Source of the DNA: Candidatus Nanoarchaeia archaeon
Lineage (GTDB): Archaea; Nanobdellota; Nanobdellia; SCGC-AAA011-G17; JAFCDX01
Assembly (NCBI GenBank): GCA_041651575.1
Contig: JBAZJB010000001.1
Coordinates: 742,450-766,449, forward strand
DNA length: 24,000 nucleotides
Reading direction: 5' to 3'
Both the position numbers and the translations under genes were made by a program. Below are positions 3,664 to 24,000 of this stretch, in pieces (the stretch's first letter is position 1; each line of letters opens with the position of its first letter). Below the pieces are notes generated by a model. The model saw only the letters and a list, made by a program, of their open reading frames with translations, was not told the DNA's origin and searched no databases.

Positions 3664-5076
3664 GTGATAAAAATGGCAGAACAAGACAATAATAATAAAA
3701 GTAACAGTATACTTTATTCTTCAGAGAACCCTATCATTGATATTCTTAAACAATTATCTGAGGTTGGAACTAATAGAGAAAAATTAGCGGTTTTAGAAGA
3801 TAGACTTACAACCTATCCTGTAGAAGATAAAATTGGAAGAGAAAGATTAGAAACCTATAAAATGGATTTGGTATCTGATATAGAACAAGCAGAAGTTGAG
3901 GATAATATAAAAAAACTTAAACGTATAAGAAAAAAATCGGCTGAAAGTTATAATTTTCAACATGTTCATCCTTCAATTATTAATTCTTATGAAGAATATA
4001 GGAAGGCACATACTTTTTCTATGCAGGGAGATAGTTTAGATCAATTACCTATAGAAGAAGCTGATAACTTATTACATTTTTTTATGATAAATGATAATAA
4101 ATTTTTTGAATCTGTAATTGAAAAGTATGTTGGGGCTGTTTCTGAAGATATAAAGTCAGTTAAATTATTAAAAAAAATATCTGAACAATCTTTAACAGAC
4201 GCTTTAGCTACAAAAGAAATTTTTGAAGTTTTATCCTTTAAAGAATTAACTCCGGATATGTTTCCTTGGCCAAATGGAGAGCAATTTAAAAAATTAAATG
4301 AAGAAAATTTAGAGAGATTAAGGGGGCTAATTAAAAAAGGATTAGAAGTGTCTTCACATTATTTATACTTATTAAATAATTTAAATGAAAAAAAAGCTAT
4401 AGAAAAAATAAAAGAAAATGATTCTCAAAAAATAACTTCTTTACCTCAATCTATCGTATTTGATCAACATAAAAGATTTTATGAAGGTATAAATAGAGTA
4501 AATAATTTTTGTTTAGACCTTTTAAGTGGAAAAGAAGATAGTACATCTAATTCAAATTTAGAGAGAATTTTAAAGTTAGAAAATTTTATAGATGTTTGTG
4601 AACCTTATCTTAATCTTTTATTAAAACAAGAAAAATATGGGGATGCTACTCTTATAGGGGCAATTTCTTTTTATAAACAAAATAATGTAGTTAAATTAAT
4701 AGAAGAAACTAAATCTAAAATTAGAGAAGCAACAACCCACATACAAATAAATAAAATAAAACAAATTTATACTCCCTATTATGATAAAAATTCAAGGCCC
4801 TATCTGTCTTTTTTAATAGAAAAATACCAATCTAAATATTTAAAAATATTGGGTGAAGTAAAGATAGATTATTCTAAATTAGATCCTATTATAGACCAAG
4901 TTTCTTTTAAACTTTTATACGCTTTCCATATGGGAGATAAAAAACTTTATGACGAAGTAGAAGATATTGTACATAGTACTCCAATACCAGGAAAACTAAA
5001 AATAAATGGAAATGATATAACTTTTAATTTTTTATTTTTGGATTTAATAAGAGGATTTAAACCTTCTTCCAAATAA
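3664..5076 (+). CDS. hypothetical cytoplasmic protein (470 aa, helical, no recognised motif)
   Basis: Long uninterrupted ORF. The track start is GTG 3664, and an alternative ATG lies at 3673. TATA-like TTTTAAATA is at 3638..3646. The 3' end overlaps the convergent cysS by 20 nt. Confidence 0.6.
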   Translation: MIKMAEQDNNNKSNSILYSSENPIIDILKQLSEVGTNREKLAVLEDRLTTYPVEDKIGRERLETYKMDLVSDIEQAEVEDNIKKLKRIRKKSAESYNFQHVHPSIINSYEEYRKAHTFSMQGDSLDQLPIEEADNLLHFFMINDNKFFESVIEKYVGAVSEDIKSVKLLKKISEQSLTDALATKEIFEVLSFKELTPDMFPWPNGEQFKKLNEENLERLRGLIKKGLEVSSHYLYLLNNLNEKKAIEKIKENDSQKITSLPQSIVFDQHKRFYEGINRVNNFCLDLLSGKEDSTSNSNLERILKLENFIDVCEPYLNLLLKQEKYGDATLIGAISFYKQNNVVKLIEETKSKIREATTHIQINKIKQIYTPYYDKNSRPYLSFLIEKYQSKYLKILGEVKIDYSKLDPIIDQVSFKLLYAFHMGDKKLYDEVEDIVHSTPIPGKLKINGNDITFNFLFLDLIRGFKPSSK

Positions 5077-6479: not shown

Positions 6480-6992
6480 TTATTCTATTGTTACTGTTAA
6501 AGTTTGACTATAATACATGTTAGATTGACTTTTTGCATAAGTTTCTAAAGAGTACATATATGTTTCTCCAGGTATTGCATTTTTAGGTACTTTAACATTA
6601 ACTACAATTGTTGCATAAGCTCCTGCTTCTATTGGTTGAGATACTGTAGGAACTTCTATCCATTTTGGATCGCTTTTTCCATCTGCAGATTTAACTTTTA
6701 GATAAAATTCATCGTCCCTACCGAGAATATTTTTAATACCTACATACATTCTTTGAGAAGTTTTTGGTTGCATTACTGTATTTGAACCAAGAATGTACAT
6801 TTTTGTTGTTCCAGTTGTCATATACGCTCTTATTTGTTCATCTGCACTTTCAAAAGTTTGTTTTGTAATATCATTTATTTTATCAAACATTCCTCTTATA
6901 AACATTAATCCTAAACTTAACAAAGTAACTCCAAGAATAATAACTATTATGGTAGTCATAGAAAGTTCAATCGCACCCTTTTTTGATTTCAT
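6480..6992 (-). CDS. archaeal type IV pilin-like protein (class III signal peptide)
   Basis: The N-terminus MKSKKG|AIELSMTTIIVIILGVTLLSLGLMF has basic residues, then Gly, then a small residue and a long hydrophobic helix. This is the prepilin-peptidase (class III) signal pattern of archaeal pilins and archaellins. The rest looks beta-rich. Confidence 0.6.
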   Translation of the reverse strand: MKSKKGAIELSMTTIIVIILGVTLLSLGLMFIRGMFDKINDITKQTFESADEQIRAYMTTGTTKMYILGSNTVMQPKTSQRMYVGIKNILGRDDEFYLKVKSADGKSDPKWIEVPTVSQPIEAGAYATIVVNVKVPKNAIPGETYMYSLETYAKSQSNMYYSQTLTVTIE

Positions 6993-7054
6993 ATAAATTA
7001 AGAGTTTAAAATTATATTTAAAGGTTTCTATAACTTCAAAATTAAAAAAATAAG

Positions 7055-7128
7055 TGAGGAGAGGGGGATTTGAACCCCCGACATCTACGGCTTCAGCGTA
7101 GTGCTCTCCCGGGCTGAGCTACCTCCCC
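7055..7128 (-). tRNA. tRNA-Phe (anticodon GAA), 74 nt, no encoded CCA
   Basis: The reverse complement folds by hand into a cloverleaf: GGGGAGG-TA-GCTC-AGCCCGGGA-GAGC-A-CTACG-CTGAAGC-CGTAG-ATGTC-GGGGG-TTCAAAT-CCCCC-TCTCCTC-A. The 7-bp acceptor stem has two G-U pairs. The T-loop is TTCAAAT and the anticodon loop is CT-GAA-GC. Confidence 0.9.
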
Positions 7129-7154
7129 ATTGTAAGTTTAAAATTAAATACAAT

Positions 7155-7166
7155 ATATTTAAATAT
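7155..7166. promoter_or_regulatory. perfectly palindromic TATA element ATATTTAAATAT between the divergent tRNA-Phe and valS genes
   Basis: The 12-mer is its own reverse complement. Its centre lies about 32 nt from the tRNA 5' end (7128) and about 27 nt from the valS ATG (7188). Confidence 0.4.
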
Positions 7167-7187
7167 TTCTAATTGGAGATAATTAAT

Positions 7188-9530
7188 ATGCCAAGTCAAA
7201 ATTATGATTTTAAAGCTTCAGAAAAGAAGTGGAAGGAATATTGGGAAAAGAATAAGGTTTACAAATTTGATATAAATTCAAAAAAACCCATTTATTCTAT
7301 TGATACCCCTCCTCCATATATTTCTGGAAAAATGCATATAGGTCATGCTTTTTCATATTCACAACAAGATTTTATAGCAAGATACCAAAGAATGTCTGGA
7401 AAAAATGTATTTTACCCTTTTGGTACAGATGATAATGGATTACCTACAGAAAGATTTGTAGAAAAAATGAATAATGTTAAAAGTATAAATATGGATAGGG
7501 CAACATTTATAGAACTTTGTTTAAAAACACTCAAGGAAACTACTTTTGGATTTATACAAGATTGGAAAGATATTGCAATGAGCGCAGATTTTAATATATA
7601 TTATTCTACTATAGATAAACCTACTCAAAAAGTTTCTCAAAAATCTTTTATTGATTTATTTAAACAAGGAGATATTTATGTTCAAGAATTTCCAACTTTG
7701 TGGTGTGTAGATTGTAGAACTACAGTTGCACAAGCAGAATTGGAAGATAAACATTTAGAAAGTTTATTTTCTACATTGAAATTTAAAGCAAATGGAAAAG
7801 ATTTGTTGATAGCAACAACAAGACCAGAATTATTACCTGCCTGTGTTGCAGTATTTGTAAATCCTACTGATGATAGATATAAAAATTTAGTTGGTAAGAA
7901 AGCAAAAGTTCCTTTATTTAATTTTGAAGTTCCTATAATTGCAGATGAATCAGCTTCTATAGAAAAAGGAACAGGAGTATTGATGGTTTGTTCTTATGGA
8001 GATAAATATGATGCACAAGCAATTACAAAACATAAACTTTCACCTAAAATAATTTTCAATCAAGATGGGACTTTAAACTTCGGAAATTATAAAGGACTTA
8101 AAATAAGAGAAGCAAGAAAACAAATTCTTGAAGATTTAAAAAATGCAAATTTAATTACTGAACAAAAACCAATAAGTCATATTGTTAATGTACATGATAG
8201 ATGTGGAACTGAAATTGAATTATTGCCTACAAAACAATGGTTCATAAAAATATTGGATAAAAAGAAAAAATTAATAGAACAAGGTAAGAAAATAAATTGG
8301 TATCCTGAATTTATGTTTAAAAGATATGAAAATTGGGTTCAAGGATTAGAATGGGATTGGTCTATTTCAAGAGATAGACATTTTGGTATTCCTATTCCAG
8401 TTTGGGAATGTGAAAAATGTAAAGAAATTATTTTGCCTTTAGAAAAAGAATTACCTATAGATCCTTTACAAACAAAAAAGAAATGTCCTAAATGTAAACA
8501 AGATGCAAAAGGTGAGGAAAAAGTTTTAGATACTTGGGCAACATCTTCTTTATCTCCACAAATAGCTTCTTCTTTAGTTAATAATAAAGTAAAAATTCCA
8601 TTTTCTTTAAGACCACAAGCTCATGATATAATTAGAACTTGGGCATTTTATACAATAACAAAATCGTTTTTACATGAAAAAGAAATTCCTTGGAAAGATA
8701 TTACTATTTCAGGGTATGTTACAATGGGTGGAGAAAAAATGTCTAAATCTAAAGGCAATATTATTGATCCTAGGCAGGTTTTAGATAAATATGGAACAGA
8801 TGCTTTAAGATTCTGGGCAGCAGGTTCTAAATTAGGAGAAGATTTAGACTATCAAGAAAAAGATTTAGTTACAGGACAGAAATTAATAACAAAATTATGG
8901 AATGCTTCCAAATTCGTTGAAATGCATTTACAAGATTACAAAGAAAAAGAAAATAAAAAGTTAGAAAAGTTTGATGAATGGTTATTAATAAAATTAAATA
9001 ATTTAATTAAAGAATGTACAGAAGAATTTGAAAGTTATTCTTATTCAAAACCAAAACAAAAGTTAGAAAATTTCTTTTGGCATATATTTTGTGATAATTA
9101 TTTAGAAATCGTTAAAGATAGATTATATAATCCAGATAAAAGAGGAAAAGAATCTAGATTATCTGCACAATATACTTTACATAAAACTTTGATTTGTTTA
9201 TTGAAGATGTTAAGTCCAATAACTCCTTTTATTACAGAAGAAATTTATCAAGAAACTTTAAAGAAAAAAGAAAGCATACATTTAACTTCTTGGCCAGAGT
9301 ATGATAAGAAGAATGATAAAAAATTGGAAGAACAAGGAGATTTGGTTTTGGAAATAATTAATGAAGTAAGACAATTCAAAACAAAAAATAATAAATCTAT
9401 GAAAGAGCCAGTTATTATTACAATAGAAAAGAAAAATGAAAAAGTTATAAAAGAATTTTATGATGATTTGAAAGCTGTTACAAGTGCAAAAGATATTAAA
9501 TTCGGAGATAAATTAAAAATAGAATTTTAG
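7188..9530 (+). CDS. valS: valyl-tRNA synthetase (compact form)
   Basis: DTPPPYISGKMHIGHAFSYSQQDFIARYQRMSG...GTDDNGLPTE, WCVDCRTTVAQAELE and KMSKSKGN match archaeal ValRS. I prefer ATG 7188 (MPSQNYDF) to the track's TTG 7173, because of its spacing to the TATA element and a GGAG at 7175..7178. Confidence 0.85.
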   Translation: MPSQNYDFKASEKKWKEYWEKNKVYKFDINSKKPIYSIDTPPPYISGKMHIGHAFSYSQQDFIARYQRMSGKNVFYPFGTDDNGLPTERFVEKMNNVKSINMDRATFIELCLKTLKETTFGFIQDWKDIAMSADFNIYYSTIDKPTQKVSQKSFIDLFKQGDIYVQEFPTLWCVDCRTTVAQAELEDKHLESLFSTLKFKANGKDLLIATTRPELLPACVAVFVNPTDDRYKNLVGKKAKVPLFNFEVPIIADESASIEKGTGVLMVCSYGDKYDAQAITKHKLSPKIIFNQDGTLNFGNYKGLKIREARKQILEDLKNANLITEQKPISHIVNVHDRCGTEIELLPTKQWFIKILDKKKKLIEQGKKINWYPEFMFKRYENWVQGLEWDWSISRDRHFGIPIPVWECEKCKEIILPLEKELPIDPLQTKKKCPKCKQDAKGEEKVLDTWATSSLSPQIASSLVNNKVKIPFSLRPQAHDIIRTWAFYTITKSFLHEKEIPWKDITISGYVTMGGEKMSKSKGNIIDPRQVLDKYGTDALRFWAAGSKLGEDLDYQEKDLVTGQKLITKLWNASKFVEMHLQDYKEKENKKLEKFDEWLLIKLNNLIKECTEEFESYSYSKPKQKLENFFWHIFCDNYLEIVKDRLYNPDKRGKESRLSAQYTLHKTLICLLKMLSPITPFITEEIYQETLKKKESIHLTSWPEYDKKNDKKLEEQGDLVLEIINEVRQFKTKNNKSMKEPVIITIEKKNEKVIKEFYDDLKAVTSAKDIKFGDKLKIEF

Positions 9531-9564: not shown

Positions 9565-11496
9565 ATGAAAAAGAGTAATTTGTTGATTTTATTTGTTTTA
9601 ATTTTTTCTTTGGCTTTTATGTCTGCTTGTACTGTTCAATTATCTGGTAAAAATTTACCTAAAATTAATCCTAGTTGTTGTGTTGTTACAGATGTTAATA
9701 ATGGAGGTATTTTAGGTTGCGTTCAAGGTTTTAATTTAAAAAATAGTCAATCAGAATGTTATAATAAATTTTTTTCTTTAGGTAATACACAATGGGCTTC
9801 TGATTACTGTGATAAATTACCTCAATGTCAAGATACTACTTACAGTTGTATGGGTTATGATTACTCCTCAAATATAACTTACCAGTTGGTTAATATGGAG
9901 GGAAGATGTGTAGATAATACTAATTCATATCTATGTTCAAATGGAACAATTTCTTTAATTTCGACTAACGGATGCGTAACTCCTCAAGGATGTTTAGATT
10001 CAGATGATGGAATAAATATTTATGTGAAAGCAAAAGGAGGACTCTTGATAAATGGAACTTGGGGTTATAATGAAGAAATGTGTTACGATTCAAATTTTGG
10101 TATTTATAATGATGCTCCAGAAGGATGTACAGATTATACAACTGGTCATGGAAATGGTTTATGTGTACTAGAGATGTTTTGTGATGCCCTTAATCAACAA
10201 CAAACTAGAATTTACAAATGTCCAAATGGTTGTTCAAATGGGGCATGTTTGTCCGTAACTAATGAAACATGTACAGATACCGATGGAGGAATTGATTATT
10301 TAAATTTTGGAGTTATTTCTAATAATACTATGGTTGGAACATTTTCAGATAGTTGTATTAGTTCTTTAGATGGGGACGGTAGTAATGTATATGAAGGAGA
10401 TAGAATTGTAGAATATTTTTGTGGTAATGGCGGAGAATGGTCTTTTAGTTTGGTTACTTGTGAATATGGTTGTAGAAATGGAACATGCGTAAAACAATAT
10501 GATCCCTCTTTACAAAAGTATTATGTAAATCCTAGCTCTAATTTATGTACTGATACAGATAGCTCAATTAATTATTATGGTTACTTTACTAAAGGAAATA
10601 TTACTCATTATAATCCTTATAATAAAGTTAATGAATCCTTTGGAGATGGTTGTATGAATGATCCAATTGAGCAGAAGAATGTTTATGAAGGGGATTATTT
10701 AGGAGAAGCTAATTGTAGGGGAAGTTTTTATGATAATTTCATTAATTATAGTGCATTAAGTGTAGATATTTTCAAATGTCCAAATGGATGTGTAAATGGA
10801 GCATGTTTTTTAACCAATTCTAAAGTAATATCTTGTGATAGATTAATTTATCATCCAGAACAGAATGATAATGAACCGACAATTTTAGATAGAATTAATT
10901 TCTGTAAAAATAATGGTTTATATTATGCAGGAATTATGTTAGAAGGAGATCAATTCCATTGGTATGGGAATTGTTTAGATGATCCAAACAATGGGTGGGG
11001 TTATATAACTGATTTAAGAATTTGTAATTATAAATCTTGTGTAGATTCAGATAATGGAATAAATTATAGTATAAAAGGAGTTGTACAAGGATATGCAAAT
11101 AGTCCTTCGATACCTTTTAATCTTACTGATACTTGTTTACTTGAAGATGGCTCAAATGTATTAGCTGGTCCAAATATTGTGGAAGGTATTTGCGAAGATG
11201 GTTTCTGGGCATTTGGAAATATTTATACTTGTCCAAATGGATGTTATGATGGAGTTTGTATTACTCAATGCCAGTATACTTTAACTAACTGTCCTTCTTG
11301 GTCATTATGTTCTTCATCGGGCGGTCAATATTGTGCTGCAACAGGATGTAATGTTTTATTGATGAGAAGATGTTCTCCAAGCACATGTCCACAACAGTAT
11401 ACAGAAACAACTTGTCCTTCATGGACAGCTTGTGATCAAACTGGATATAAATATTGTGCAGTCGTAGGATGTTCTTCTTTAAGTAAAAAGTGTTAA
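9565..11496 (+). CDS. cysteine-rich secreted or lipid-anchored protein with four six-cysteine CxD(S/T)DxG...CxxGCxxGxC modules and a C-terminal tandem CPSW repeat
   Basis: Signal peptide with a lipobox-like FMSA|C (MKKSNLLILFVLIFSLAFMSAC). About 60 Cys in 643 aa. Modules are detailed in the next two features. Many N-x-S/T sequons. Confidence 0.85.
   Translation: MKKSNLLILFVLIFSLAFMSACTVQLSGKNLPKINPSCCVVTDVNNGGILGCVQGFNLKNSQSECYNKFFSLGNTQWASDYCDKLPQCQDTTYSCMGYDYSSNITYQLVNMEGRCVDNTNSYLCSNGTISLISTNGCVTPQGCLDSDDGINIYVKAKGGLLINGTWGYNEEMCYDSNFGIYNDAPEGCTDYTTGHGNGLCVLEMFCDALNQQQTRIYKCPNGCSNGACLSVTNETCTDTDGGIDYLNFGVISNNTMVGTFSDSCISSLDGDGSNVYEGDRIVEYFCGNGGEWSFSLVTCEYGCRNGTCVKQYDPSLQKYYVNPSSNLCTDTDSSINYYGYFTKGNITHYNPYNKVNESFGDGCMNDPIEQKNVYEGDYLGEANCRGSFYDNFINYSALSVDIFKCPNGCVNGACFLTNSKVISCDRLIYHPEQNDNEPTILDRINFCKNNGLYYAGIMLEGDQFHWYGNCLDDPNNGWGYITDLRICNYKSCVDSDNGINYSIKGVVQGYANSPSIPFNLTDTCLLEDGSNVLAGPNIVEGICEDGFWAFGNIYTCPNGCYDGVCITQCQYTLTNCPSWSLCSSSGGQYCAATGCNVLLMRRCSPSTCPQQYTETTCPSWTACDQTGYKYCAVVGCSSLSKKC
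9991..11259 (+). repeat. four divergent protein-level copies of the six-cysteine module (nt 9991..10248, 10270..10488, 10546..10803, 11038..11259)
   Basis: Module starts are CLDSDDGINIY, CTDTDGGIDY, CTDTDSSINY and CVDSDNGINY. Module ends are CPNGCSNGAC, CEYGCRNGTC, CPNGCVNGAC and CPNGCYDGVC. Coordinates were checked against TGT codons at 9991, 10270, 10546 and 11038. Confidence 0.8.
11269..11493 (+). repeat. two tandem ~36-aa cysteine repeats (CQYTLTNCPSWSLCSSSGGQYCAATGCNVLLMRRC and CPQQYTETTCPSWTACDQTGYKYCAVVGCSSLSKKC)
   Basis: Direct reading of the C-terminal 75 aa shows the shared pattern T-x-CPSW-x-x-C-x(4-5)-YCA-x-x-GC-x(6)-C. Confidence 0.75.
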
Positions 11497-11609: not shown

Positions 11610-12701
11610 ATGAATATCAAAGAAAGATACAAACTAAAAAAAACCTTAAAAGAATTAGAAGGAATTAGGGGAAGACATACAGAATTGGTTTCTGTTTATG
11701 TTCCTGCAGGTTATGAATTAGTTAAAATTTTAAATCATTTATTCCAAGAGCAAGGAACTGCTTCTAATATTAAAGATAAAACAACAAGAATGCATGTTAT
11801 AGATTCTATTGAAAGAATGATACAACATTTAAGATTATTTAAAAGAACTCCAATAAATGGATTAGCTGTTTTTGCAGGTAATGCTTCTGAAAAAGAAAAT
11901 AAAGTCGATATTAAAGTTTGGTCTATAGAACCTCCTGAACCAATTAATATGCGAGTATATAGGTGTGATCAAACTTTTTTATTAGAACCTTTAATAGATA
12001 TGATTAATATTAAAGAAACATTTGGTTTAATAGTTCTTGATAAAAGAGAAGCCAATGTTGGATTATTAAGAGGAACAAATATTAAAAATTTAGTTACAAT
12101 GACTTCAGGTGTTCCTGGAAAAGTAAAAACTGGAGGTTTCTCACAGCAAAGATACTCAAGATTAAGAGATGAGGCAGCTCACGAATTTTATAAAAGAGTT
12201 GCAGAATTTGCAAATAAAGAATTTTTTAACAAGCCAGACTTAAAAGGAGTATTGATTGGAGGACCAGGAACAACTAAGCAAGAATTTGTAGATGGAAATT
12301 ATTTATTAACTGAAATAAGAAAAAAAATAATTGCGGTAAAAGATTTATCTTATACTGGAGAATCTGGTTTGCATGATTTAGTAGAAAGAAGTCACGAAGT
12401 TCTTGCAGAAGAAGAAATAACTGTGGAAAAAGAAATTATGCAAAAGTTTTTTGAAAAATTAGCAAGAGAAGAAGAAAAAACAACTTATGGATTAGTTGAA
12501 ACTAAAAAAGCATTAGCTTTAGGTGCCGTAGATACTTTACTCTTATCTGAAAATTTACCTGATAAACAGATAGAAGAACTTGAAGAAGAAGCAGAAAAAT
12601 ATAAAACAGAAGTAAAGATGATTTCTACTGAATCAAGAGAAGGAGTACAATTAAAAGACATTGGTGGAGTAGCAGCTATACTCAGATATCCTATAAAATA
12701 A
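11610..12701 (+). CDS. prf1: peptide chain release factor aRF1 homologue, compact (363 aa), with GGF in place of GGQ
   Basis: Matches the a/eRF1 pattern: GRHTELVSVYVP, TASNIKDKTTR (NIKS-type loop), YRCDQTF (YxCxxxF) and PGKVKTGGFSQQRYSRLRDEAAHEFYKRVAE (GGQ region). Codons 12132..12140 read GGA GGT TTC. Confidence 0.85.
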   Translation: MNIKERYKLKKTLKELEGIRGRHTELVSVYVPAGYELVKILNHLFQEQGTASNIKDKTTRMHVIDSIERMIQHLRLFKRTPINGLAVFAGNASEKENKVDIKVWSIEPPEPINMRVYRCDQTFLLEPLIDMINIKETFGLIVLDKREANVGLLRGTNIKNLVTMTSGVPGKVKTGGFSQQRYSRLRDEAAHEFYKRVAEFANKEFFNKPDLKGVLIGGPGTTKQEFVDGNYLLTEIRKKIIAVKDLSYTGESGLHDLVERSHEVLAEEEITVEKEIMQKFFEKLAREEEKTTYGLVETKKALALGAVDTLLLSENLPDKQIEELEEEAEKYKTEVKMISTESREGVQLKDIGGVAAILRYPIK

Positions 12702-12741: not shown

Positions 12742-13134
12742 ATGGATAACAGAGACAAAGTGGTGATTGGTTCTGCGATATTAGTTGTTTTAGCAGTATT
12801 AATTGTTTTAAATAATACTGTAAATTATAATACTGGTCAAGCTATGAGAGCAGGTAATTGTTATGATACAGATAGTGGAGATAATAAATATGCAAGAGGA
12901 ACCCTTTCAGGCCATATATACCCTTCACAAGAACAAATTAATGAAAGGGACTATTGTGTATATTATGAAGATGATCCAGGAAAAAAAGATGTTTTAAAAG
13001 AATATTATTGTTTAAAAGATGTTTCTGAAAATTGTTTAGATAATGATCCAGATACAGATTGCGATAAATCTGCATATTCATCTAAATTTTTGATTTGTGA
13101 ATATGGTTGCAAGAACGGAGCTTGCGAGAGATAA
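12742..13134 (+). CDS. small secreted six-cysteine-module protein, paralogue 1 (130 aa, two extra Cys)
   Basis: Signal or anchor MDNRDKVVIGSAILVVLAVLIVL...NTG|QA. Module motifs are CYDTDSGDNKYARGTLSG...RDYC...LKEYYC...ICEYGCKNGAC. Confidence 0.85.
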   Translation: MDNRDKVVIGSAILVVLAVLIVLNNTVNYNTGQAMRAGNCYDTDSGDNKYARGTLSGHIYPSQEQINERDYCVYYEDDPGKKDVLKEYYCLKDVSENCLDNDPDTDCDKSAYSSKFLICEYGCKNGACER

Positions 13135-13152
13135 TTTTATTTTAATTTAAAA

Positions 13153-13503
13153 ATGAAACTATTTGAAGGTTTTACAAGAAAATTAGTAATAGTTTTTGTA
13201 ATATTGTCTTTATATCTTTTATTTTTTTCAACAGGAATTTTTGATATGGTTACAGGATATAATCTTAAAGTAGCACATTGTGAAGATACAGATAAAGGTT
13301 CTATTTATGTAAAAGGAACTATTTCTGGGCAGACAGATATTAATGCGGCTATTGAACCAAAAACAGATTATTGTTCTTTAGAAGATAAAGAAATTTTAAA
13401 AGAATTTCAATGTGATCTTTTAACACCAAATAATTGGAGATCTTTTCCAATAAATTGTACTAATTATGGTATGAGATGTGTAGATGGTGCTTGTATAAAT
13501 TAG
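13153..13503 (+). CDS. small secreted six-cysteine-module protein, paralogue 2 (116 aa)
   Basis: Hydrophobic N-terminus LVIVFVILSLYLLFF...VTG|YN. Module motifs are CEDTDKGSIYVKGTISG...TDYC...LKEFQC...CTNYGMRCVDGAC. Confidence 0.8.
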   Translation: MKLFEGFTRKLVIVFVILSLYLLFFSTGIFDMVTGYNLKVAHCEDTDKGSIYVKGTISGQTDINAAIEPKTDYCSLEDKEILKEFQCDLLTPNNWRSFPINCTNYGMRCVDGACIN

Positions 13504-13508
13504 AAATA

Positions 13509-13515
13509 TTTATAA
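13509..13515 (+). promoter_or_regulatory. TATA box (TTTATAA) for the 13538 gene
   Basis: It lies within GAAATATTTATAAG, about 26 nt upstream of the ATG. Confidence 0.4.
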
Positions 13516-13529
13516 GTACCTTTCTTTAT

Positions 13530-13628
13530 ATTAAATTATGGATACAAAAGACAAAACTATAATCGGATTAGTAGTTTTGCTCGTTTTAGCAGTACTTTTG
13601 GCATCTGGTATTTTAACTACAGGAAAAG
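13530..13628 (+). repeat. 99-bp block 100% identical to 13925..14023 (8 nt upstream of the ATG plus codons 1-30 and one further nt)
   Basis: Base-by-base comparison at a 395-nt offset. Identity starts at 13530/13925 and ends at 13628/14023. Confidence 0.9.
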
Positions 13629-13858
13629 CTATCAAAGTTTCTTGTGAAGATACAGATGGCGATAGTATTTATTTGCAAGGAGCTGTAAGTGGAACTGATT
13701 CTGGAGGAAGTGCTTTTGGACCTTATGCGGATTTTTGTTCTGTAGAAGATTCAAATATTTTAGTTGAATACACTTGTGATCAATTCCAAGCAGGTGGGTA
13801 TAAGAGAGAAACTAAATCTTGCGGAAAAGGCTGCGAAAACGGAGCATGTAAACAATAA
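13538..13858 (+). CDS. small secreted six-cysteine-module protein, paralogue 3 (106 aa)
   Basis: MDTKDKTIIGLVVLLVLAVLLASGILTTG|K. Module motifs are CEDTDGDSIYLQGAVSG...ADFC...LVEYTC...CGKGCENGAC. Confidence 0.85.
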   Translation: MDTKDKTIIGLVVLLVLAVLLASGILTTGKAIKVSCEDTDGDSIYLQGAVSGTDSGGSAFGPYADFCSVEDSNILVEYTCDQFQAGGYKRETKSCGKGCENGACKQ

Positions 13859-13865
13859 ATTAAAA

Positions 13866-13886
13866 TTTTTTTATTTTTCTTTTTTT
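13866..13886 (+). terminator. oligo-T tract (T7-A-T5-C-T7) after paralogue 3
   Basis: T runs begin 8 nt after stop 13856..13858. Confidence 0.45.
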
Positions 13887-13905
13887 AATTTAATTTAGAA
13901 ACATT

Positions 13906-13913
13906 TAAATATA
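13906..13913 (+). promoter_or_regulatory. TATA box TTTAAATA for the 13933 gene
   Basis: It lies within GAAACATTTAAATATAG, and its centre is about 24 nt upstream of the ATG. Confidence 0.45.
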
Positions 13914-13924
13914 GCTTATTCTTA

Positions 13925-14023
13925 ATTAAATTATGGATACAAAAGACAAAACTATAATCGGATTAGTAGTTTTGCTCGTTTTAGCAGTACTTTTGGCATC
14001 TGGTATTTTAACTACAGGAAAAG
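13925..14023 (+). repeat. second copy of the 99-bp identical block (see 13530..13628)
   Basis: Same comparison as for 13530..13628. Confidence 0.9.
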
Positions 14024-14259
14024 TAACTAACGCATTTTCTTGTTCAGATACAGATGTTGGAAGTAGATTTATACAAGGAACAATAACAGGATCTGTAGGT
14101 GGAAATTCTTTTGAACTTACAGATTACTGTAATGCGGATGGAACTTTAAAAGAATATTCCTGTGGTATTAATAGATGGTATTATGGGGATACAGACGAAG
14201 AAGGTCAACCTGCATTGATTTGTCCAAATGGCTGCGAAAACGGAGCATGCCTACAATAA
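13933..14259 (+). CDS. small secreted six-cysteine-module protein, paralogue 4 (108 aa)
   Basis: The first 30 aa are identical to paralogue 3. Module motifs are CSDTDVGSRFIQGTITG...TDYC...LKEYSC...ICPNGCENGAC. Confidence 0.85.
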   Translation: MDTKDKTIIGLVVLLVLAVLLASGILTTGKVTNAFSCSDTDVGSRFIQGTITGSVGGNSFELTDYCNADGTLKEYSCGINRWYYGDTDEEGQPALICPNGCENGACLQ

Positions 14260-14266
14260 ATTAAAA

Positions 14267-14287
14267 TTTTTATTTTTTATTTTTTTT
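14267..14287 (+). terminator. oligo-T tract (T5-A-T6-A-T8) after paralogue 4
   Basis: T runs begin shortly after stop 14257..14259 and are homologous to the tract at 13866..13886. Confidence 0.45.
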
Positions 14288-14303
14288 AATTTATATAGAA
14301 ATA

Positions 14304-14311
14304 TTTATAAA
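14304..14311 (+). promoter_or_regulatory. TATA box (TTTATAAA) for the 14333/14730 gene pair
   Basis: It lies within GAAATATTTATAAATA, about 25 nt upstream of ATG 14333. The 14730 gene starts 1 nt after the 14333 gene's stop. Confidence 0.4.
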
Positions 14312-14332
14312 TAATTAGATATTTAAATAAAT

Positions 14333-14728
14333 ATGAAAATGAAGAAAAAAGAGGATGTTAGAGATTATATTATTTTAGTTTTAATCATTTCTGTTTGCGC
14401 ATTTTTTATATTGGGTTTTATAAATTTTACAACAGGAAATGTTCTTTTAAAAAGAAGTTGTAATGATACAGATGGAGGATATAATCCTTTTGTAAAAGGT
14501 ACAGTGACCGCAGTAAGCAAAGGACGTTATGCTTTTGAAGAAAAAACAGATTATTGTGTATATATGCAAGTTGGACCAAATGAAGAAAATAAATATCCTG
14601 CAGTAAAAGAATATTTCTGTGGCTCAGATCCAGAAAGTACCAAATCTCAAGATTTTACTTATAGCCAATATAATGATAAATTAGTTATTTGTAATAATGG
14701 TTGTAAAGACGGAGCCTGCATAGAATAA
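14333..14728 (+). CDS. small secreted six-cysteine-module protein, paralogue 5 (131 aa)
   Basis: Signal or anchor YIILVLIISVCAFFILGFINFTTG|N. Module motifs are CNDTDGGYNPFVKGTVT...TDYC...VKEYFC...ICNNGCKDGAC. Confidence 0.85.
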   Translation: MKMKKKEDVRDYIILVLIISVCAFFILGFINFTTGNVLLKRSCNDTDGGYNPFVKGTVTAVSKGRYAFEEKTDYCVYMQVGPNEENKYPAVKEYFCGSDPESTKSQDFTYSQYNDKLVICNNGCKDGACIE

Positions 14729-14729
14729 A

Positions 14730-15098
14730 ATGGCAAAAAAATTCAACAAAGAAATTTTATTATCGGCTTTATTATTAATAACTTTAGTTCTTTTATTAGT
14801 TTTTGGAGTAACTCAATTTACTACAACAAGTAATGTTCTTGTTGGTTGCGATAAATCTTGTGAAGATAATGATCAAGGAAGTATTAATTTAAAAGGAACT
14901 GTTTCAGTAAGAGGAGATGATTGTAATTTGCGTGAAAGAACAGATTATTGTATAGATGAATATAGATTAAAAGAATATAATTGTGATTCTACCAATTCTT
15001 TAAATTTCCAAACAATGATAGTTTATTGTGAAGAAAAATGTTTTAATGGTGTTTGTTTAACTGAAAAACAGACTTTAGAATACCAAGGTTTAGAGTAA
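14730..15098 (+). CDS. small secreted six-cysteine-module protein, paralogue 6 (122 aa, divergent, extra Cys)
   Basis: Signal or anchor ILLSALLLITLVLLLVFGV. Module motifs are CEDNDQGSINLKGTVS...TDYC...LKEYNC...YCEEKCFNGVC, followed by a short C-terminal tail. Confidence 0.8.
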   Translation: MAKKFNKEILLSALLLITLVLLLVFGVTQFTTTSNVLVGCDKSCEDNDQGSINLKGTVSVRGDDCNLRERTDYCIDEYRLKEYNCDSTNSLNFQTMIVYCEEKCFNGVCLTEKQTLEYQGLE

Positions 15099-15137: not shown

Positions 15138-15617
15138 ATGGAAAATAGGAATAAAATAGAATCTGTATTATTTATATTAGGAAGACCTTTATCTGTACAG
15201 GAAATAGCTGGGTTAACAGGTATAGGTTCTCATGGATTAATTGCTCAAAAATTACTTGAATTAAAAGATGAATATACTAAAAGACAAGGACCTTTAGAAT
15301 TAGTAAATGAAACAGAAAAATGGAAGCTTTGTTTAAAAAAAGAATATTTATATCTAAGTGAAAAATTGTTATCGGATTCTGAATTAGATTTTCCTACACA
15401 AGAAACTTTGGCAGTAGTTGCATATAAACAACCTGTTTTACAAGCAGAAATTATAAAAATAAGGGGAAATAAAGCATACGATCATATTCATTTCTTAAAA
15501 GAAAATAATTTTATTACTTCAGAAAAATCAGGGAGAACAAGATTATTAAAATTAACTCAAAAATTCTTTGATTATTTTGATGTAGTAGATAATAATCTAA
15601 AATTAAAAAATGAATAA
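15138..15617 (+). CDS. scpB: segregation and condensation protein B (ScpB)-like, short form
   Basis: IESVLFILGRPLSVQEIAGLTG...TQETLAVVAYKQPVLQAEIIKIRG...SGRTRLLKLTQKFFDYF is the double winged-helix ScpB pattern. Confidence 0.75.
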   Translation: MENRNKIESVLFILGRPLSVQEIAGLTGIGSHGLIAQKLLELKDEYTKRQGPLELVNETEKWKLCLKKEYLYLSEKLLSDSELDFPTQETLAVVAYKQPVLQAEIIKIRGNKAYDHIHFLKENNFITSEKSGRTRLLKLTQKFFDYFDVVDNNLKLKNE

Positions 15618-17073
15618 AATATATAAAATACTTTTGTTGGTTTTATTTTTGTTTGTATTTTTATTTAGATTGAACTTTTCTTTATCTTCTCCAGAAAATT
15701 CTTTTTCAGATGATACTTCTTATTTTAATTTGAGACAAGCAGATTATGTTAAAGAAAATTTAAAACCAATGACTTACGATGAATTAAGTTATTCAGGTAA
15801 GCCAGTAAATAATTCACCTTTATTTTCGTATTTTTTGGCAGGAATTTCATTTATTCCTTGGGGCAGTAAAATAATTTTACAATTTTTTATGTCCTTATTA
15901 GTAATTCTTGCCTATTTAATATCAAAACAAATAATCAATGATGAAAGATCTGCATTAATTTCTGCATTCATTGCAGGGTTTGTGCCTTTAGCAATTAGAG
16001 AAACTTTAAACAAGATTTCGGTTTATTGTATTGTTTTTCCTTTAGTATTTTTTATGCTTTATTGCATTTTAAATATTGATAAAAAAGTATATTTTGGTTT
16101 ATTTTTATTATCTTCATTTATACTAACATTATTGAGTCCAATTTCTATTTTAATATCCTCTTTCTTTATAATTTATTTCATCTTTTCTTATGCAGAAGAT
16201 TCTGAATTAAACAAAAAAGAAATAATTTTAATATTATCTTTTTTAATAATAACCTTTATAACAAATTTATTAATCTATAAAAATTCTTTATTAAATTATG
16301 GAATAAGCGTATTATGGAACAACCTTCCTAGTTCATTATCTGTGGCTTCTTTTAAACAAATAAATATTTTTTCTATAATGTATCATTTAGGTTACATTCC
16401 TTTAATATTCGGATTTATAACTATTTATAAAGGAATTACAAAATATAAAAAGAAAGCAATATTTTTAGTATCTTCTTTATTAATAACAAATTTAATTTTA
16501 CTTTCATTAAAAATGATTAATTTTTATACTGCTTTAGTTTTTATTGGCTTATCCGCTTCAATACTATCTTCATTGACCATTTATAACTTTTTTAAATATT
16601 TGCAATTAACAAAAGTAGCACATTGGAATAAATTACTTTTAAGTGCTTTTGTAATTTTATTAATATTATTTTCAGTTTATCCTTCATTTACTATGGCAAA
16701 AAATACTGCTAGTCAAGTTCCTAGTAATATGGAAATAGAATCATTAGAATGGATAAAACAAGATTCTAAAGATTTAAATGAGGTGGTTATTGGAACGATT
16801 TATGAAGGTAATTTAATTAATTATTTTTCCGGAAAGAAAAACTTTTTTGATACAAATTTTTTGTTAGCTCCAAATCCAGAGAAAAGATTAGTTGACACAA
16901 ATATTTTATTTAGTTCTAATTCAGAAGAAAGAATAATCTCAAAAATGAAAGAGAATAATATAAAATACATTTTTTTATCAGATAAGACTAAAAAACTATA
17001 TCAAGTAGACAATAAGAAGTTTGATACAGGCTGTTTTGAAAAGAACTTATTAGTTTATAAGTTGGTTTGTTAA
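15610..17073 (+). CDS. polytopic membrane protein, GT-C-fold glycosyltransferase-like (possible divergent AglB/STT3 or GT39-like enzyme)
   Basis: About 12-13 hydrophobic helices followed by a ~130-aa soluble C-terminal domain. The first loop reads SDDTSYFNLRQ (compare the STT3 DPYFNYR motif). The C-terminal domain reads LEWIKQDSKDLNEVVIGTIYEGNLINYFSGKKNFFD, laid out like the region around WWDYG in oligosaccharyltransferases, but with a degenerate motif. The start overlaps the scpB stop (ATGAATAA). Confidence 0.45.
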   Translation: MNKIYKILLLVLFLFVFLFRLNFSLSSPENSFSDDTSYFNLRQADYVKENLKPMTYDELSYSGKPVNNSPLFSYFLAGISFIPWGSKIILQFFMSLLVILAYLISKQIINDERSALISAFIAGFVPLAIRETLNKISVYCIVFPLVFFMLYCILNIDKKVYFGLFLLSSFILTLLSPISILISSFFIIYFIFSYAEDSELNKKEIILILSFLIITFITNLLIYKNSLLNYGISVLWNNLPSSLSVASFKQINIFSIMYHLGYIPLIFGFITIYKGITKYKKKAIFLVSSLLITNLILLSLKMINFYTALVFIGLSASILSSLTIYNFFKYLQLTKVAHWNKLLLSAFVILLILFSVYPSFTMAKNTASQVPSNMEIESLEWIKQDSKDLNEVVIGTIYEGNLINYFSGKKNFFDTNFLLAPNPEKRLVDTNILFSSNSEERIISKMKENNIKYIFLSDKTKKLYQVDNKKFDTGCFEKNLLVYKLVC

Positions 17074-17089
17074 TATTCAGGGGGTTAAA

Positions 17090-18325
17090 ATGTTTGAAAT
17101 ATATATATGGATATTGTGTTTCATTTCACTATATGTATCTATCTTTTGGTTAATTATAGTTGGTTTAGGGGAGCCAAAAGAACCGCAGCCATTAAAAGAA
17201 ATTCCTAAAGTTACTGTAGTTGTTCCTGCATATAATGAAGAAAAAAATATAGCAAAAACCTTAGATTCTATACTTAATTTAGATTATCCTAAAGATAAAT
17301 TAAAAATAATTGTAGCAGATGATGCTTCTACAGATAATACTCCTTTAATTATAAAAGAATATTGTAAAAAACATAAAAATATTAAATTAATTCAAAATAA
17401 AATTAATAGTGGAAATGCAGCAGGAACATTGAATGCATCCTTACAACAAATTGATACTGAATTCTTTGCAAGAGTTGATTCTGATTCTTTTGTAGATAAA
17501 AATTCTTTAAAATTAATTATAAATCATTTTTCAGATCCAGAAATTGGTGCTATAATTAGTTCGGTTTTGATAAATAATGATATAAATTATTTAGGTAGAA
17601 TACAAAGATTAGAATATATTTTATCGAGTTTTGTTAGAAAATTAATTTCTAGAATTGGAGCATTACATATGACACATGGAGTTATGACTGTTTATAGGAC
17701 AAACTTAATTAAAAAATTAGGAGGTTTTGATAAAAATAATTTAACAGAAGATTTAGAAGTTGCATTGAAATTGAGATACAATAAATATAATGTAATTATA
17801 GAACCAAGAAGCATTAATTATACTAATGGTCCTTTAAATCTAAAAGCCTTTTGGAAGCAAAGAGTTAGATGGTTTAGGGGTTTTATTACAAATAATTGGA
17901 AATATAAAAAGATGTTTTTCAATAAAAATTATGGTTTAATTGGGTTGTTTCAATTACCTTTAAATGTTACAACTATGCTAATGGTTTTGTTTTCATTTAT
18001 TTTATTTGCTTATCAATTTTTAAGATATGTATATACTACTTTAATAAAAATAATTACTTTGGGTTTTGGAATGTTTGATTTTATAATAGAATGGCCTTCT
18101 GTAAAAGATTTTATTTTAAGTTTAGATATAAGGATTTGGTTCCCTGTAATTGCAAGTTTTATATTTGGTTTTTATATCTATATTTATGCCCATAAATACT
18201 TTAATCAGAAGTGGAAATTCCATTTCATTACACTTATATATTTATTGTTATACCCTATGTTAAGGAGCCTACAGTGGATGAATGCCTTTGTTTTAGAGGC
18301 TTTTGGGGCTAAGAGGAAATGGTAA
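17090..18325 (+). CDS. processive family-2 glycosyltransferase (IcaA/PgaC/NodC/chitin-synthase-like), membrane-integrated
   Basis: The GT2 core has VVVPAYNEE, DDASTDNT, DSDS, TEDLE and the processive-synthase signature QRVRWFRG (QxxRW). There is one N-terminal and about four C-terminal TM helices. The 411-aa length resembles IcaA/PgaC-type synthases. Confidence 0.8.
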   Translation: MFEIYIWILCFISLYVSIFWLIIVGLGEPKEPQPLKEIPKVTVVVPAYNEEKNIAKTLDSILNLDYPKDKLKIIVADDASTDNTPLIIKEYCKKHKNIKLIQNKINSGNAAGTLNASLQQIDTEFFARVDSDSFVDKNSLKLIINHFSDPEIGAIISSVLINNDINYLGRIQRLEYILSSFVRKLISRIGALHMTHGVMTVYRTNLIKKLGGFDKNNLTEDLEVALKLRYNKYNVIIEPRSINYTNGPLNLKAFWKQRVRWFRGFITNNWKYKKMFFNKNYGLIGLFQLPLNVTTMLMVLFSFILFAYQFLRYVYTTLIKIITLGFGMFDFIIEWPSVKDFILSLDIRIWFPVIASFIFGFYIYIYAHKYFNQKWKFHFITLIYLLLYPMLRSLQWMNAFVLEAFGAKRKW

Positions 18326-22340: not shown

Positions 22341-22362
22341 TATAAATTTTAATCTTATTTGT

Positions 22363-24000
22363 ATGAAAAAGAGTTTGATTGTACTTTCTTTATTATTAAT
22401 ATTAGTAACTCCAATTGTATTTGCTTTTTCAATAAATGATTTTTTATCAAATTTATTTGGAACTAATTCAGATAATACAAGAACTTTAGAAGCGGTTACT
22501 TATTCTTGCATAAAATCAGATGGTTCTAGTTCTAGTTATTGGAATTATAATGTAAAAGGTACCATTAGTAAAATTACAGTAACTAGTTCTTCGTTTGGTT
22601 CTAGTACTACAACTCAAGCAATAGGTTCTGATTATTGTCTTAAAGATATTGGGCAAGATACTACAGGTACTCTTTTAGGAGAACATTATTGTGCAAATTC
22701 ATACACTTTTCAAATTGGTGCTGTAGATTGTTCTGATTATGGTAAAGTATGTAGTGATGGAAAATGTGTTACATCTTCAACTTCTCCTAGTGGAGGAGGA
22801 AGTACAATAACTCCAGTTACTTTATCTTCAACTATTACAACTTCTTGTGTTGGAACTAAATCAAAAGCAACTATATCTTTTAGTAGTGGAAGTGCTCCTA
22901 GTAATGGAAAATATAGTATTGATCTTTTTAAAGGAGAAATAAGTAATGCAGATCCTTCTACATCAACATATTATGCTGTAGAAGTAACAGATGATACATC
23001 AAAAGCAACCGAAACTTTTACACTTAATGAATTTAATATAAAAGTAATAGGTCCTGGAGATGTAGCTGGAAATGTACAACCATTATCTCCAAGTTATGCT
23101 TTAGAATCTGGACAAAAATATGTTGTTTGGGTATGGAATGGAGCTTTGTCAAATAAAGTAGCATTTACTGCTAAGGACTGTAGTGGAAGTGGAACAACTT
23201 CGGCAGAAGCATTTACTGTTACTGAAGATGATTGTGTTAATGCCCCTATTAACGGAGATAGTAATATTGTAAATGGTGTAGTTAGCAGAATAGGAGAATG
23301 TGGTTCTGATGGAAAAACTTTAAAATTTTGTTATAATAAAAAATTATATACAGAAACTTGTGCATATGGATGTGAGTTAAAATCATATGGGGCTTTTTGT
23401 AAAACTAAAATACCTATGTATACTACAAATACTTGCTCTTATCTTGCTAGTGACACAGGATACACAAATAGTCAATGTGTAACTTCTCCTACTCAAGAAT
23501 GTGCTGTGGTAGGTTATGATGTTAATCTTGGAAGTGCTGCTGATTGTACTAAATTAGATAAAAAATGTTGTGCAAATACATCTTCAACTTCTCCTAGTGG
23601 AGGAGGAAGTACAATAACTCCAGTTACTTTATCTTCAACTATTACAACTTCTTGTGTTGGAACTAAATCAAAAGCAACTATATCTTTTAGTAGTGGAAGT
23701 GCTCCTAGTAATGGAAAATATAGTATTGATCTTTTTAAAGGAGAAATAAGTAATGCAGATCCTTCTACATCAACATATTATGCTGTAGAAGTAACAGATG
23801 ATACATCAAAAGCAACCGAAACTTTTACACTTAATGAATTTAATATAAAAGTAATAGGTCCTGGAGATGTAGCTGGAAATGTACAACCATTATCTCCAAG
23901 TTATGCTTTAGAATCTGGACAAAAATATGTTGTTTGGGTATGGAATGGAGCTTTGTCAAATAAAGTAGCATTTACTGCTAAGGACTGTAGTGGAAGTGGA
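22363..24000 (+). CDS. large secreted repeat protein, partial (runs off the right edge): signal peptide, six-cysteine module, then repeating 269-aa units
   Basis: Not in the ORF track because no stop falls in the window. Hand translation gives MKKSLIVLSLLLILVTPIVFAFS.... A module at nt 22507..22767 reads CIKSDGSSSSYWNYNVKGTIS...SDYC...LGEHYC...CSDYGKVCSDGKC. An S/T/G linker TSSTSPSGGGSTITPVTLSS follows, then a beta-rich domain and more Cys-rich segments. The frame stays open for all 546 codons. Confidence 0.85.
   Translation, partial: MKKSLIVLSLLLILVTPIVFAFSINDFLSNLFGTNSDNTRTLEAVTYSCIKSDGSSSSYWNYNVKGTISKITVTSSSFGSSTTTQAIGSDYCLKDIGQDTTGTLLGEHYCANSYTFQIGAVDCSDYGKVCSDGKCVTSSTSPSGGGSTITPVTLSSTITTSCVGTKSKATISFSSGSAPSNGKYSIDLFKGEISNADPSTSTYYAVEVTDDTSKATETFTLNEFNIKVIGPGDVAGNVQPLSPSYALESGQKYVVWVWNGALSNKVAFTAKDCSGSGTTSAEAFTVTEDDCVNAPINGDSNIVNGVVSRIGECGSDGKTLKFCYNKKLYTETCAYGCELKSYGAFCKTKIPMYTTNTCSYLASDTGYTNSQCVTSPTQECAVVGYDVNLGSAADCTKLDKKCCANTSSTSPSGGGSTITPVTLSSTITTSCVGTKSKATISFSSGSAPSNGKYSIDLFKGEISNADPSTSTYYAVEVTDDTSKATETFTLNEFNIKVIGPGDVAGNVQPLSPSYALESGQKYVVWVWNGALSNKVAFTAKDCSGSG
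22770..23193 (+). repeat. copy 1 of a perfect direct repeat of at least 424 bp (807-bp period)
   Basis: Line-by-line comparison with 23577..24000 found no mismatch. The repeat starts at T22770/T23577 and is still identical at the window end. Confidence 0.9.
23577..24000 (+). repeat. copy 2 of the perfect direct repeat, truncated by the window edge
   Basis: See 22770..23193. The 807-nt offset equals 269 codons and is in frame. Confidence 0.9.

Follow-up and report, generated by a model that had tools for sequence, protein, structure and literature searches.

The GGQ motif is described as universally conserved in archaeal and eukaryotic class-I release factors (a/eRF1) (Atkinson et al. 2008, PMC2613156). 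It is the one motif common to the unrelated bacterial and archaeal/eukaryotic release factors, is commonly termed universal and essential, and serves as a basis for both annotation and catalytic models. The glycines of GGQ are needed for backbone geometry (Zeng & Jin 2018, PMC5799190); in the same source, the glutamine side chain has a 'packing role', which N5-methylation strengthens through van der Waals contacts to U2506, A2451 and A2452, and the hydrolytic water is coordinated by three groups: the main-chain NH, the side-chain C=O and the A76 2'-OH. The motif is GGQ in classical aeRF-1 and GGxSQ, with its Gln taken as catalytic, in aVLRF-1 and acVLRF-1 (Burroughs & Aravind 2019, PMC6514570). 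Here, we analyzed a 24,000-nucleotide stretch of DNA from Candidatus Nanoarchaeia archaeon (contig JBAZJB010000001.1, positions 742,450 to 766,449; hereafter the window), in which the aRF1 gene at 11610..12701 encodes GGF where GGQ is expected. All features of the window lie on the plus strand unless stated otherwise, and organism labels are given as in the deposited records. To judge from the alignments, the product is an aRF1 orthologue by descent and a variant by its catalytic motif.

The 363-aa product scored 429.8 bits against the NCBIfam model for peptide chain release factor aRF-1 (TIGR03676; cutoff 234.7), and Pfam placed eRF1_1, eRF1_2 and eRF1_3 on it in that order. Its top sequence match in the Protein Data Bank (PDB) was 4af1 (E=1.8e-76), and an AlphaFold2 (AF2) model of mean predicted local distance difference test (pLDDT) score 83.7 gave template-modeling (TM) scores of 0.76-0.82 to aRF1 and ribosome-bound eRF1 structures (4af1, 5lzu, 3jag). 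These results identify the gene as a class-I release factor orthologue. The M (peptidyl-transferase-centre) domain covers residues 138-266 (12021..12407; Pfam eRF1_2, 137 bits), and within it the DNA at 12132..12149 reads GGA GGT TTC TCA CAG CAA, encoding G175, G176, F177, S178, Q179 and Q180. HMMER alignments to 4af1, 3agk and 3e20 left the loop ungapped, pairing 'ktGGfsqqrysrlr' with 'rkGGqSaqRfaRLR' and setting F177 on the Gln of GGQ. The original prediction, made from the sequence alone, had placed Phe there in an ungapped alignment, and the comparison with a/eRF1 structures agrees that the motif is not shifted. Thus, where classical aeRF-1 is told by GGQ, the window protein has GGF (12132..12140, with the Phe codon TTC at 12138..12140). 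The prediction had further reckoned that a change from Gln to Phe needs at least two nucleotide changes, which is too few, as the codons for Gln (CAA/CAG) and Phe (TTT/TTC) differ at all three positions. S178 and Q179 (12141..12146) complete a GGxSQ loop, and the covariation described below makes Q179 (CAG, 12144..12146) a candidate substitute polar or catalytic Gln.

An identical protein was found on an independently assembled Logan contig (L001) from SRR8542065, and TTC also stands at the Phe codon in P0001, a 97% identical protein. The GTDB genome JAQUOT01, labelled Candidatus Nanoarchaeia archaeon STD1_207, has an orthologue at locus L011 on a 536-kb contig, which is 90.9% identical to the window gene in DNA and matches it in 354/363 residues of the protein, with TTC kept at the same codon. 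The window and L011 genes differed by a synonymous rate (dS) of 0.50 and a nonsynonymous rate (dN) of 0.018, and the dN/dS of 0.036 indicates strong purifying selection on the aRF1 gene. Seven further GTDB genomes have TTC or TTT at the variant codon. Given the independent assembly, the related genomes with a Phe codon and the low dN/dS, GGF is not a sequencing error; the original prediction had argued against a single-base error. The alternative that the sequence or its assembly is wrong, or that the gene is a decaying pseudogene, has nothing in its favor but the prior expectation of an invariant GGQ; against it stand, besides these data, an intact open reading frame (ORF) and the three nucleotide differences needed from any Gln codon, and we consider its probability negligible.

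Whether GGF recurs in the related lineage was a question already raised by the original prediction, and GGF was indeed present in 11/120 of the closest database proteins. Neighbor-joining trees were built on this one protein with residues 160-195 (the loop) masked and 100 bootstraps. GGF was monophyletic in 0/100 bootstraps, and 6-9 state changes were needed. The window clade was nested inside GGQ sequences with 93% support, and one GGQ pair was nested with GGF sequences with 100% support. On the evidence of these trees, GGF arose at least six times among Woesearchaeota-like aRF1s. The loop DNA of the window was 75-76% identical to that of its GGQ sisters and 60-71% identical to that of other GGF lineages, and the Ser178 codon was TCA in some GGF lineages and AGT/AGC in others. 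Since loop DNA tracks the gene phylogeny and the Ser codons differ, the substitution appears to be convergent rather than due to cassette transfer. On the same grounds, we rejected the spread of a GGF cassette between lineages, for example by co-conversion in intein homing.

Inteins (PF14890; proteins of 490-970 aa) were observed in many aRF1 genes, exactly between GG[Q/F/W/M] and the next Ser, with junctions of the form ...GGQ / C...HN / SQ.RY. They were carried by P0010, P0012, P0013, P0079, P0081 and P0087, as well as by about 50/150 of a set of representatives (e.g. P0121, P0133, P0135 and P0149). Intein-bearing and intein-free alleles have the same local flanks, such as PGKLQVGGW; the window gene is intein-free.

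The association between the replaced Gln and the residue two positions downstream (+2; position 179) was evaluated only in sets gathered without a motif filter, namely the closest homologues, 150 representatives clustered at 50% identity, and the relatives of a Zestosphaera protein. In 25 representative clusters, the Gln was replaced by F, W, M or A. Across all sequences compared, the replacement was F in 18, W in many and M in several, and GGA was limited to two clusters. The non-Gln loops nearly always read GG[F/W/M/A]-S-Q. Gln was found at +2 in 24/25 non-Gln clusters versus 14/84 GGQ clusters of the representative set after correction of three intein junctions; the Fisher p of ~1e-9 refers to the counts before these corrections, which strengthen the association. 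The sole non-Gln representative cluster without Gln at +2, P0143, reads GGWSAN and may be genuine or an error. Within the Woesearchaeota-like group, position 179 changed at least 20 times (Q/A/S) in 103 GGQ sequences and 0 times in 18 GGF sequences, in which the residue after it keeps varying. Position 179 is therefore labile beside GGQ and never changed beside GGF, a signature of dependence between the two sites. All of the at least six independent GGF origins lie on a Gln179 background, and the Gln+2 counts suggest that the swap occurred only where the loop was GGQSQ, after which the second Gln was frozen. Tyr at +5, which forms the RY of GGFSQQRY and corresponds to Y182 (12153..12155) in the window protein, co-varies with Phe in the alignment counts, being found in 7/8 GGF clades versus 17% of GGQ relatives (mostly Phe).

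The original prediction treated the window gene as a single oddity and overlooked how widely it recurs: by sequence, it is one case of a GG[F/W/M]SQ loop that recurs in several archaeal lineages. A scan of GTDB with the pattern PGKxxxGG[not Q]SQxR[YF]xR gave at least 119 loci, all of them genuine among the matches listed; the counts are lower bounds, and because Ser-Gln is built into the pattern, these loci are unfit for the Gln+2 association. GG[W/F/M]SQ aRF1s occurred in at least 102 archaeal GTDB species genomes, with GGW or GGM in at least 95 of these. The archaeal loci comprised at least 63 with GGW that were mostly labelled Aenigmatarchaeota, with some Micrarchaeota and Nanoarchaeota (including chromosomes CP070804.1 and CP070801.1), at least 29 with GGW in Desulfurococcales/Sulfolobales (including Zestosphaera tikiterensis NZ3), at least 7 with GGF in Nanoarchaeia/Woesearchaeota, and at least 3 with GGM; at least 17 further loci were bacterial. 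Tested representatives scored 428-462 bits against TIGR03676 (Aenigmatarchaeota GGW 461.6, GGM 456, Zestosphaera GGW 428), that of the complete chromosome CP070804.1 included. Among 120 relatives of the Zestosphaera protein, the Desulfurococcales loop read PGKHSKGGWSQRRYDRIIE in 38 clusters and PGKHSKGGQSQRRYDRIIE in 81, a single-residue difference; the PGKHSKGGQSQRRYDRIIE (GGQSQ) clusters include Desulfurococcus amylolyticus and D. mucosus, and Gln occupies +2 beside GGQ in 81/81. A profile search of the protein database with 43-aa GGF loop segments returned three candidates that shared words, none of which scored.

Several further variants were seen alongside these loci. One cluster, P0328, reads GGKSQ within an otherwise GGQSQ Desulfurococcales group; as a single cluster, it may be real or an error. 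Locus L059, on a 2.25 Mb chromosome of an uncultured Nitrososphaerota (OY969807.1; match at 4568-4614, minus strand), encodes an aRF1-like protein with GGWSQ that scored 327 bits against TIGR03676, has a degenerate NIKS region (SPEIKSQ) and by eye shows no YxCxxxF-like match; it may be a true aRF1 paralogue. The bacterial loci (L003, L007, L020, L031 and 13 others) belong to Actinomycetota, Gaiellaceae, Chloroflexota and one genome labelled Patescibacteria. Their loop, PGKH[DK][QM]GGWSQxR[YF]QRHI, is near-identical to the archaeal GGW aRF1 loop. Pfam assigns the proteins to baeRF family 10, and against the Balon/Rv2629 hibernation-factor models they stay under the cutoffs.

The gene neighborhood was compared with that of GGQ relatives. 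The common order is L31e, S19e, (DUF7343), DUF5667, cysteine-tRNA ligase (CysRS), a 170-aa ORF, valine-tRNA ligase (ValRS), aRF1, small ORFs and ScpB, followed by a ~485-aa ORF, a GT2 glycosyltransferase, a ~220-aa ORF, a helix-turn-helix (HTH) gene, (RpoL), AMMECR1 and Big_9. In the window, ValRS (7173..9530; NF009687, 1018.7 bits, cutoff 738) is the conserved upstream neighbor that marks the ancestral aRF1 locus, and ScpB, a 487-aa ORF and the GT2 glycosyltransferase (15138..18325; Pfam) form the downstream synteny block. This order is common to three GGQ relatives that are 61-70% identical, namely P0002 (L121, GCA_028717785.1), P0007 (L122/L123, GCA_975850245.1) and P0069 (L124/L125). It was also found at the GGF loci L011, L058, L082, L083, L085, L092 and L098 and at the Woesearchaeota GGW locus L109. 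The ScpB, 487-aa ORF and GT2 block follows aRF1 in the GGQ loci L121, L122 and L124 and in the GGF loci L082, L085 and L092, and the ValRS-aRF1 adjacency is present in GGQ, GGF, GGW and GGM loci, reaching Aenigmatarchaeota GGW and GGM. As the gene order matches that of GGQ loci, the GGF gene is a positional orthologue of canonical aRF1. P0046 (GGF) and P0075 (GGQ) share 82% of their residues; the differences cluster near the loop, and the N domain is nearly identical. No second aRF1 was found in the fetched 8-21 kb loci, which do not cover whole genomes, nor among the 120 best-matching relatives of the Zestosphaera protein (down to 57% identity) or their cluster names. That list contains one Zestosphaera tikiterensis entry, and the nearest GGQ clusters to the Zestosphaera protein bear other organism names.

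The stop-codon-reading elements of the window aRF1 are unchanged. The N (stop-codon recognition) domain covers residues 10-131 (11637..12002; Pfam eRF1_1). The original prediction had pointed to NIKD in place of NIKS within TASNIKDK (11766..11777) as a peculiarity; NIKD is there, but it is the clade's usual form, shared by 114/121 of the closest sequences, GGQ and GGF carriers alike. Asp at the fourth NIKS position is moreover a variant already recorded (Atkinson et al. 2008, PMC2613156). The YxCxxxF motif, YRCDQTF (11958..11978), is intact, as had been predicted from the translation; in its columns, Y117 and F123 are invariant, and C119 is kept in >=90% of aligned relatives. The C domain covers residues 272-362 (12423..12695; Pfam eRF1_3) and ends in AAILRYPI. 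It lacks the Zn-ribbon-like insert and so is of the short form, and the window aRF1 aligns end to end with the 373-aa aRF1 of A. pernix (3agk), which likewise has a short C domain without it. Both the length of 363 aa and the missing insert were thus seen correctly, but neither is unusual, since all GGQ relatives are also 360-368 aa long. We conclude from these comparisons that NIKD, the protein length and the absent insert are normal for the clade. The window itself is AT-rich (27% GC) and gene-dense, with the housekeeping genes L31e, S19e, CysRS, ValRS, ScpB, RNA polymerase subunit L and AMMECR1. Its 23 large ORFs end in 20 TAA, 2 TAG and 1 TGA, with no sign of recoding. All three stops therefore end large ORFs, and termination looks standard, in line with the prediction.

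On balance, we are inclined to read the window protein as the organism's own aRF1 at the ancestral locus, which would still terminate translation with a loop changed from GGQ-S-Q to GG-F-S-Q and its function split between F177 and Gln179. Of the two alternatives named in the original prediction, this is the one in which the factor works through a noncanonical loop with a Gln at +2, and it is favored by synteny, tree, Gln+2 coupling and dN/dS. Thanks to the glycines, the loop could still reach into the peptidyl-transferase centre; residue 177 would retain its main-chain NH, and the two jobs of N5-methyl-glutamine would be divided between residues 177 and 179. Phe177 (Trp or Met elsewhere) would pack its bulky hydrophobic side chain against nucleotides of the centre, and Gln179 would supply a polar group that helps to position the hydrolytic water; such a split-role loop would mirror the GGxSQ loops of VLRF1 and baeRF family-10 relatives. 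A Gln mutant of human eRF1 reportedly keeps partial activity, going by the title of the work of Seit-Nebi et al. 2000 as listed in PMC2613156. Several points weigh against this proposal. In vivo, neither yeast nor E. coli tolerates loss of the GGQ Gln. P0143, with no Gln at +2, suggests that Gln179 may not be strictly required. In the AF2 model, residues 166-178 form the loop and a helix starts at Q179, so that Q179 sits at the first helix turn after the loop and would have to reach the ester bond on the ribosome from there. Finally, a second, GGQ-bearing aRF1 could still lie outside the fetched loci and the relatives that were searched.

Possible, if rather unlikely in our view, is that the protein is the sole working aRF1 but that Gln179 is not catalytic. 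Hydrolysis would then need no more than the loop geometry set by the glycines, the main-chain NH of residue 177 and any well-packing hydrophobic residue acting as a methyl-Gln mimic, and Gln179 would be conserved for another role, such as helix capping or an rRNA contact. The packing role of the Gln side chain and the coordination of water by the main-chain NH (PMC5799190) speak for this, as do the replacements, which are nearly always bulky hydrophobics, the P0143 loop, and the invariance of Gln+2 beside GGQ in Desulfurococcales, which suggests that this residue has a role of its own. The frequent flips of position 179 beside GGQ, their absence beside GGF and the restriction of all origins to Gln179 backgrounds argue the other way. 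More improbable still is a non-hydrolytic or specialised factor, acting in rescue, recycling, hibernation or as a regulated stop-codon competitor, with a canonical GGQ aRF1 elsewhere releasing the peptide. This paralogue alternative, the other one offered by the original prediction, keeps some footing: release is held to require GGQ, which is regarded as universal (PMC2613156), L059 indicates that paralogue-like versions exist, and bacterial GGWSQ proteins occur in baeRF families related to Balon-type hibernation factors. It is weakened by the ancestral ValRS-aRF1-ScpB slot that the GGF gene shares with the GGQ aRF1 of relatives, by an N domain as conserved as in GGQ sisters, by the dN/dS, by the small size of the carrier genomes, and by the lack of a second aRF1 in the fetched loci or among the Zestosphaera relatives. 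A release-dead factor that still reads stops would presumably be a dominant inhibitor that poisons termination. Because of this expectation, the ancestral slot and the conserved N domain, a second aRF1 copy elsewhere in the genome is unlikely.

Other features surround the aRF1 gene. Between ValRS and aRF1, the window has a 643-aa Cys-rich ORF with a signal peptide (9565..11496) and no Pfam or NCBIfam match. It is present in the Logan contig L001 and absent from L011, L121, L122 and L124, where ValRS abuts aRF1; given its absence from a close relative and from GGQ loci, it looks like a recent insertion. Directly downstream of aRF1 lie six small (106-131 aa) secreted Cys-rich ORFs (12742..15098), which match one another in tblastn at 31-50% identity and thus form a paralogous family, with related copies in the same slot of L011, L121 and L122. 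A tRNA-Phe(GAA) gene (7054..7128, minus strand) stands just upstream of ValRS, and any link to the Gln-to-Phe change is probably coincidence. An exact 300-nt direct repeat (22770..23069 and 23577..23876, start offset 807 nt) lies inside a secreted Cys-rich ORF that starts near 22360 and extends past the window end; it represents either a domain duplicated very recently within the ORF or an artefact of assembly. Locus L121 contains a LAGLIDADG-type ORF (6833..7456, minus strand; faint Pfam match) between the 169-aa ORF and ValRS, which is absent from the window. A 197-aa S-adenosylmethionine-dependent (SAM) methyltransferase (PF05175) with an NPPF motif follows the HTH gene in L124/L125 (17451..18044; GGQ) and L092 (7692..7976; GGF), and the window has no counterpart at that position. 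We take its NPPF motif in L124/L125 to be METTL5-like, not Mtq2-like. The idea that this gene is an Mtq2 lost in GGF genomes was rejected, as it also lies beside the GGF locus L092 and is uninformative.

No published description of non-GGQ classical aRF1s was found in the full-text literature searched, in which GGxSQ appeared only in Burroughs & Aravind 2019. The previously described families with a GGxSQ loop appear to be only VLRF1 and baeRF, and the window case is apparently an instance of a broader, unreported pattern. Several archaeal lineages probably rely for translation termination on a release factor without the GGQ Gln, its function having moved two residues downstream or the Gln side chain being dispensable in vivo. 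These lineages would include much of Aenigmatarchaeota, many of the Woesearchaeota-like DPANN and, in Desulfurococcales, the Zestosphaera clade; one carrier in that clade, Z. tikiterensis, is presumably available in culture. If this is true, the last 'invariant' residue of all class-I release factors is not invariant, and if Mtq2-Trm112 cannot methylate the displaced Gln, the enzyme would be left without its known release-factor target in these organisms. The recurrent, selected replacement would amount to a natural experiment on the role of the side chain in water positioning, packing or nucleophile exclusion, and would bear on why the Gln is methylated. The Gln+2 coupling ties classical aRF1 to the GGxSQ loops of Vms1-like and bacterial aeRF1 proteins and suggests two interchangeable loop solutions. 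For annotators, it also carries a caution: the motif alone is no ground for calling such genes inactive or Pelota-like.

Compared with canonical aRF1/eRF1 (TIGR03676; 4af1, 3agk, 5lzu), the window protein has the same three domains, fold, NIKS-type motif, YxCxxxF and C-terminal ILRY, and it occupies the genomic locus of GGQ orthologues, the nearest of which is 70% identical. It differs in having Phe for the 'universally conserved' Gln of GGQ, in a GGFSQ loop, and in being the short form without the C-domain insert, which is common to the clade and the A. pernix aRF1. With aVLRF-1, acVLRF-1 and baeRF family 10, it shares the GGxSQ pattern (GGFSQ, residues 175-179), and the family 10 loop, PGKHDQGGWSQ, resembles archaeal GGW aRF1 loops. 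However, aVLRF-1 lacks the C-terminal Pelota-type domain and has a long N-terminal coiled coil, whereas the window protein has eRF1_3 at residues 272-362 and no N-terminal extension; acVLRF-1 lacks the stop-codon domain (PMC6514570), whereas the window protein has the full classical architecture. The window protein scored 50.4 bits against NF041024 (cutoff 125) and 44.2 against NF052289 (cutoff 320), and its PF18854 and PF18859 matches are weaker overlaps of the eRF1_2 domain. By these comparisons, it is not an aVLRF-1/acVLRF-1 member but has converged on their loop, and it does not belong to baeRF family 10 or the Balon-type hibernation factors either.

Pelota/Dom34 has a homologous M and C fold, no GGQ, and delivery by the same EF1-alpha-type GTPase. 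It differs in its Sm-like N domain, the lack of NIKS and YxCxxxF, and a truncated, poorly conserved loop, whereas the window protein has eRF1_1 and an intact GG-loop; against the Pelota model TIGR00111, it reached 118.8 bits (cutoff 177.65), over the M and C domains only. Laboratory mutants of the Gln (human eRF1 Gln185, bacterial RF1/RF2) are not known to be viable as the only copy. Like the window protein, they have the Gln replaced and both glycines kept, and the literature, as far as the title of Seit-Nebi et al. goes in one case, reports that activity is not wholly lost and that the side chain serves in packing (PMC5799190). Those changes were engineered, whereas the change in the window arose in nature, is fixed and recurs elsewhere, is subject to purifying selection and goes with a coupled Gln at +2.

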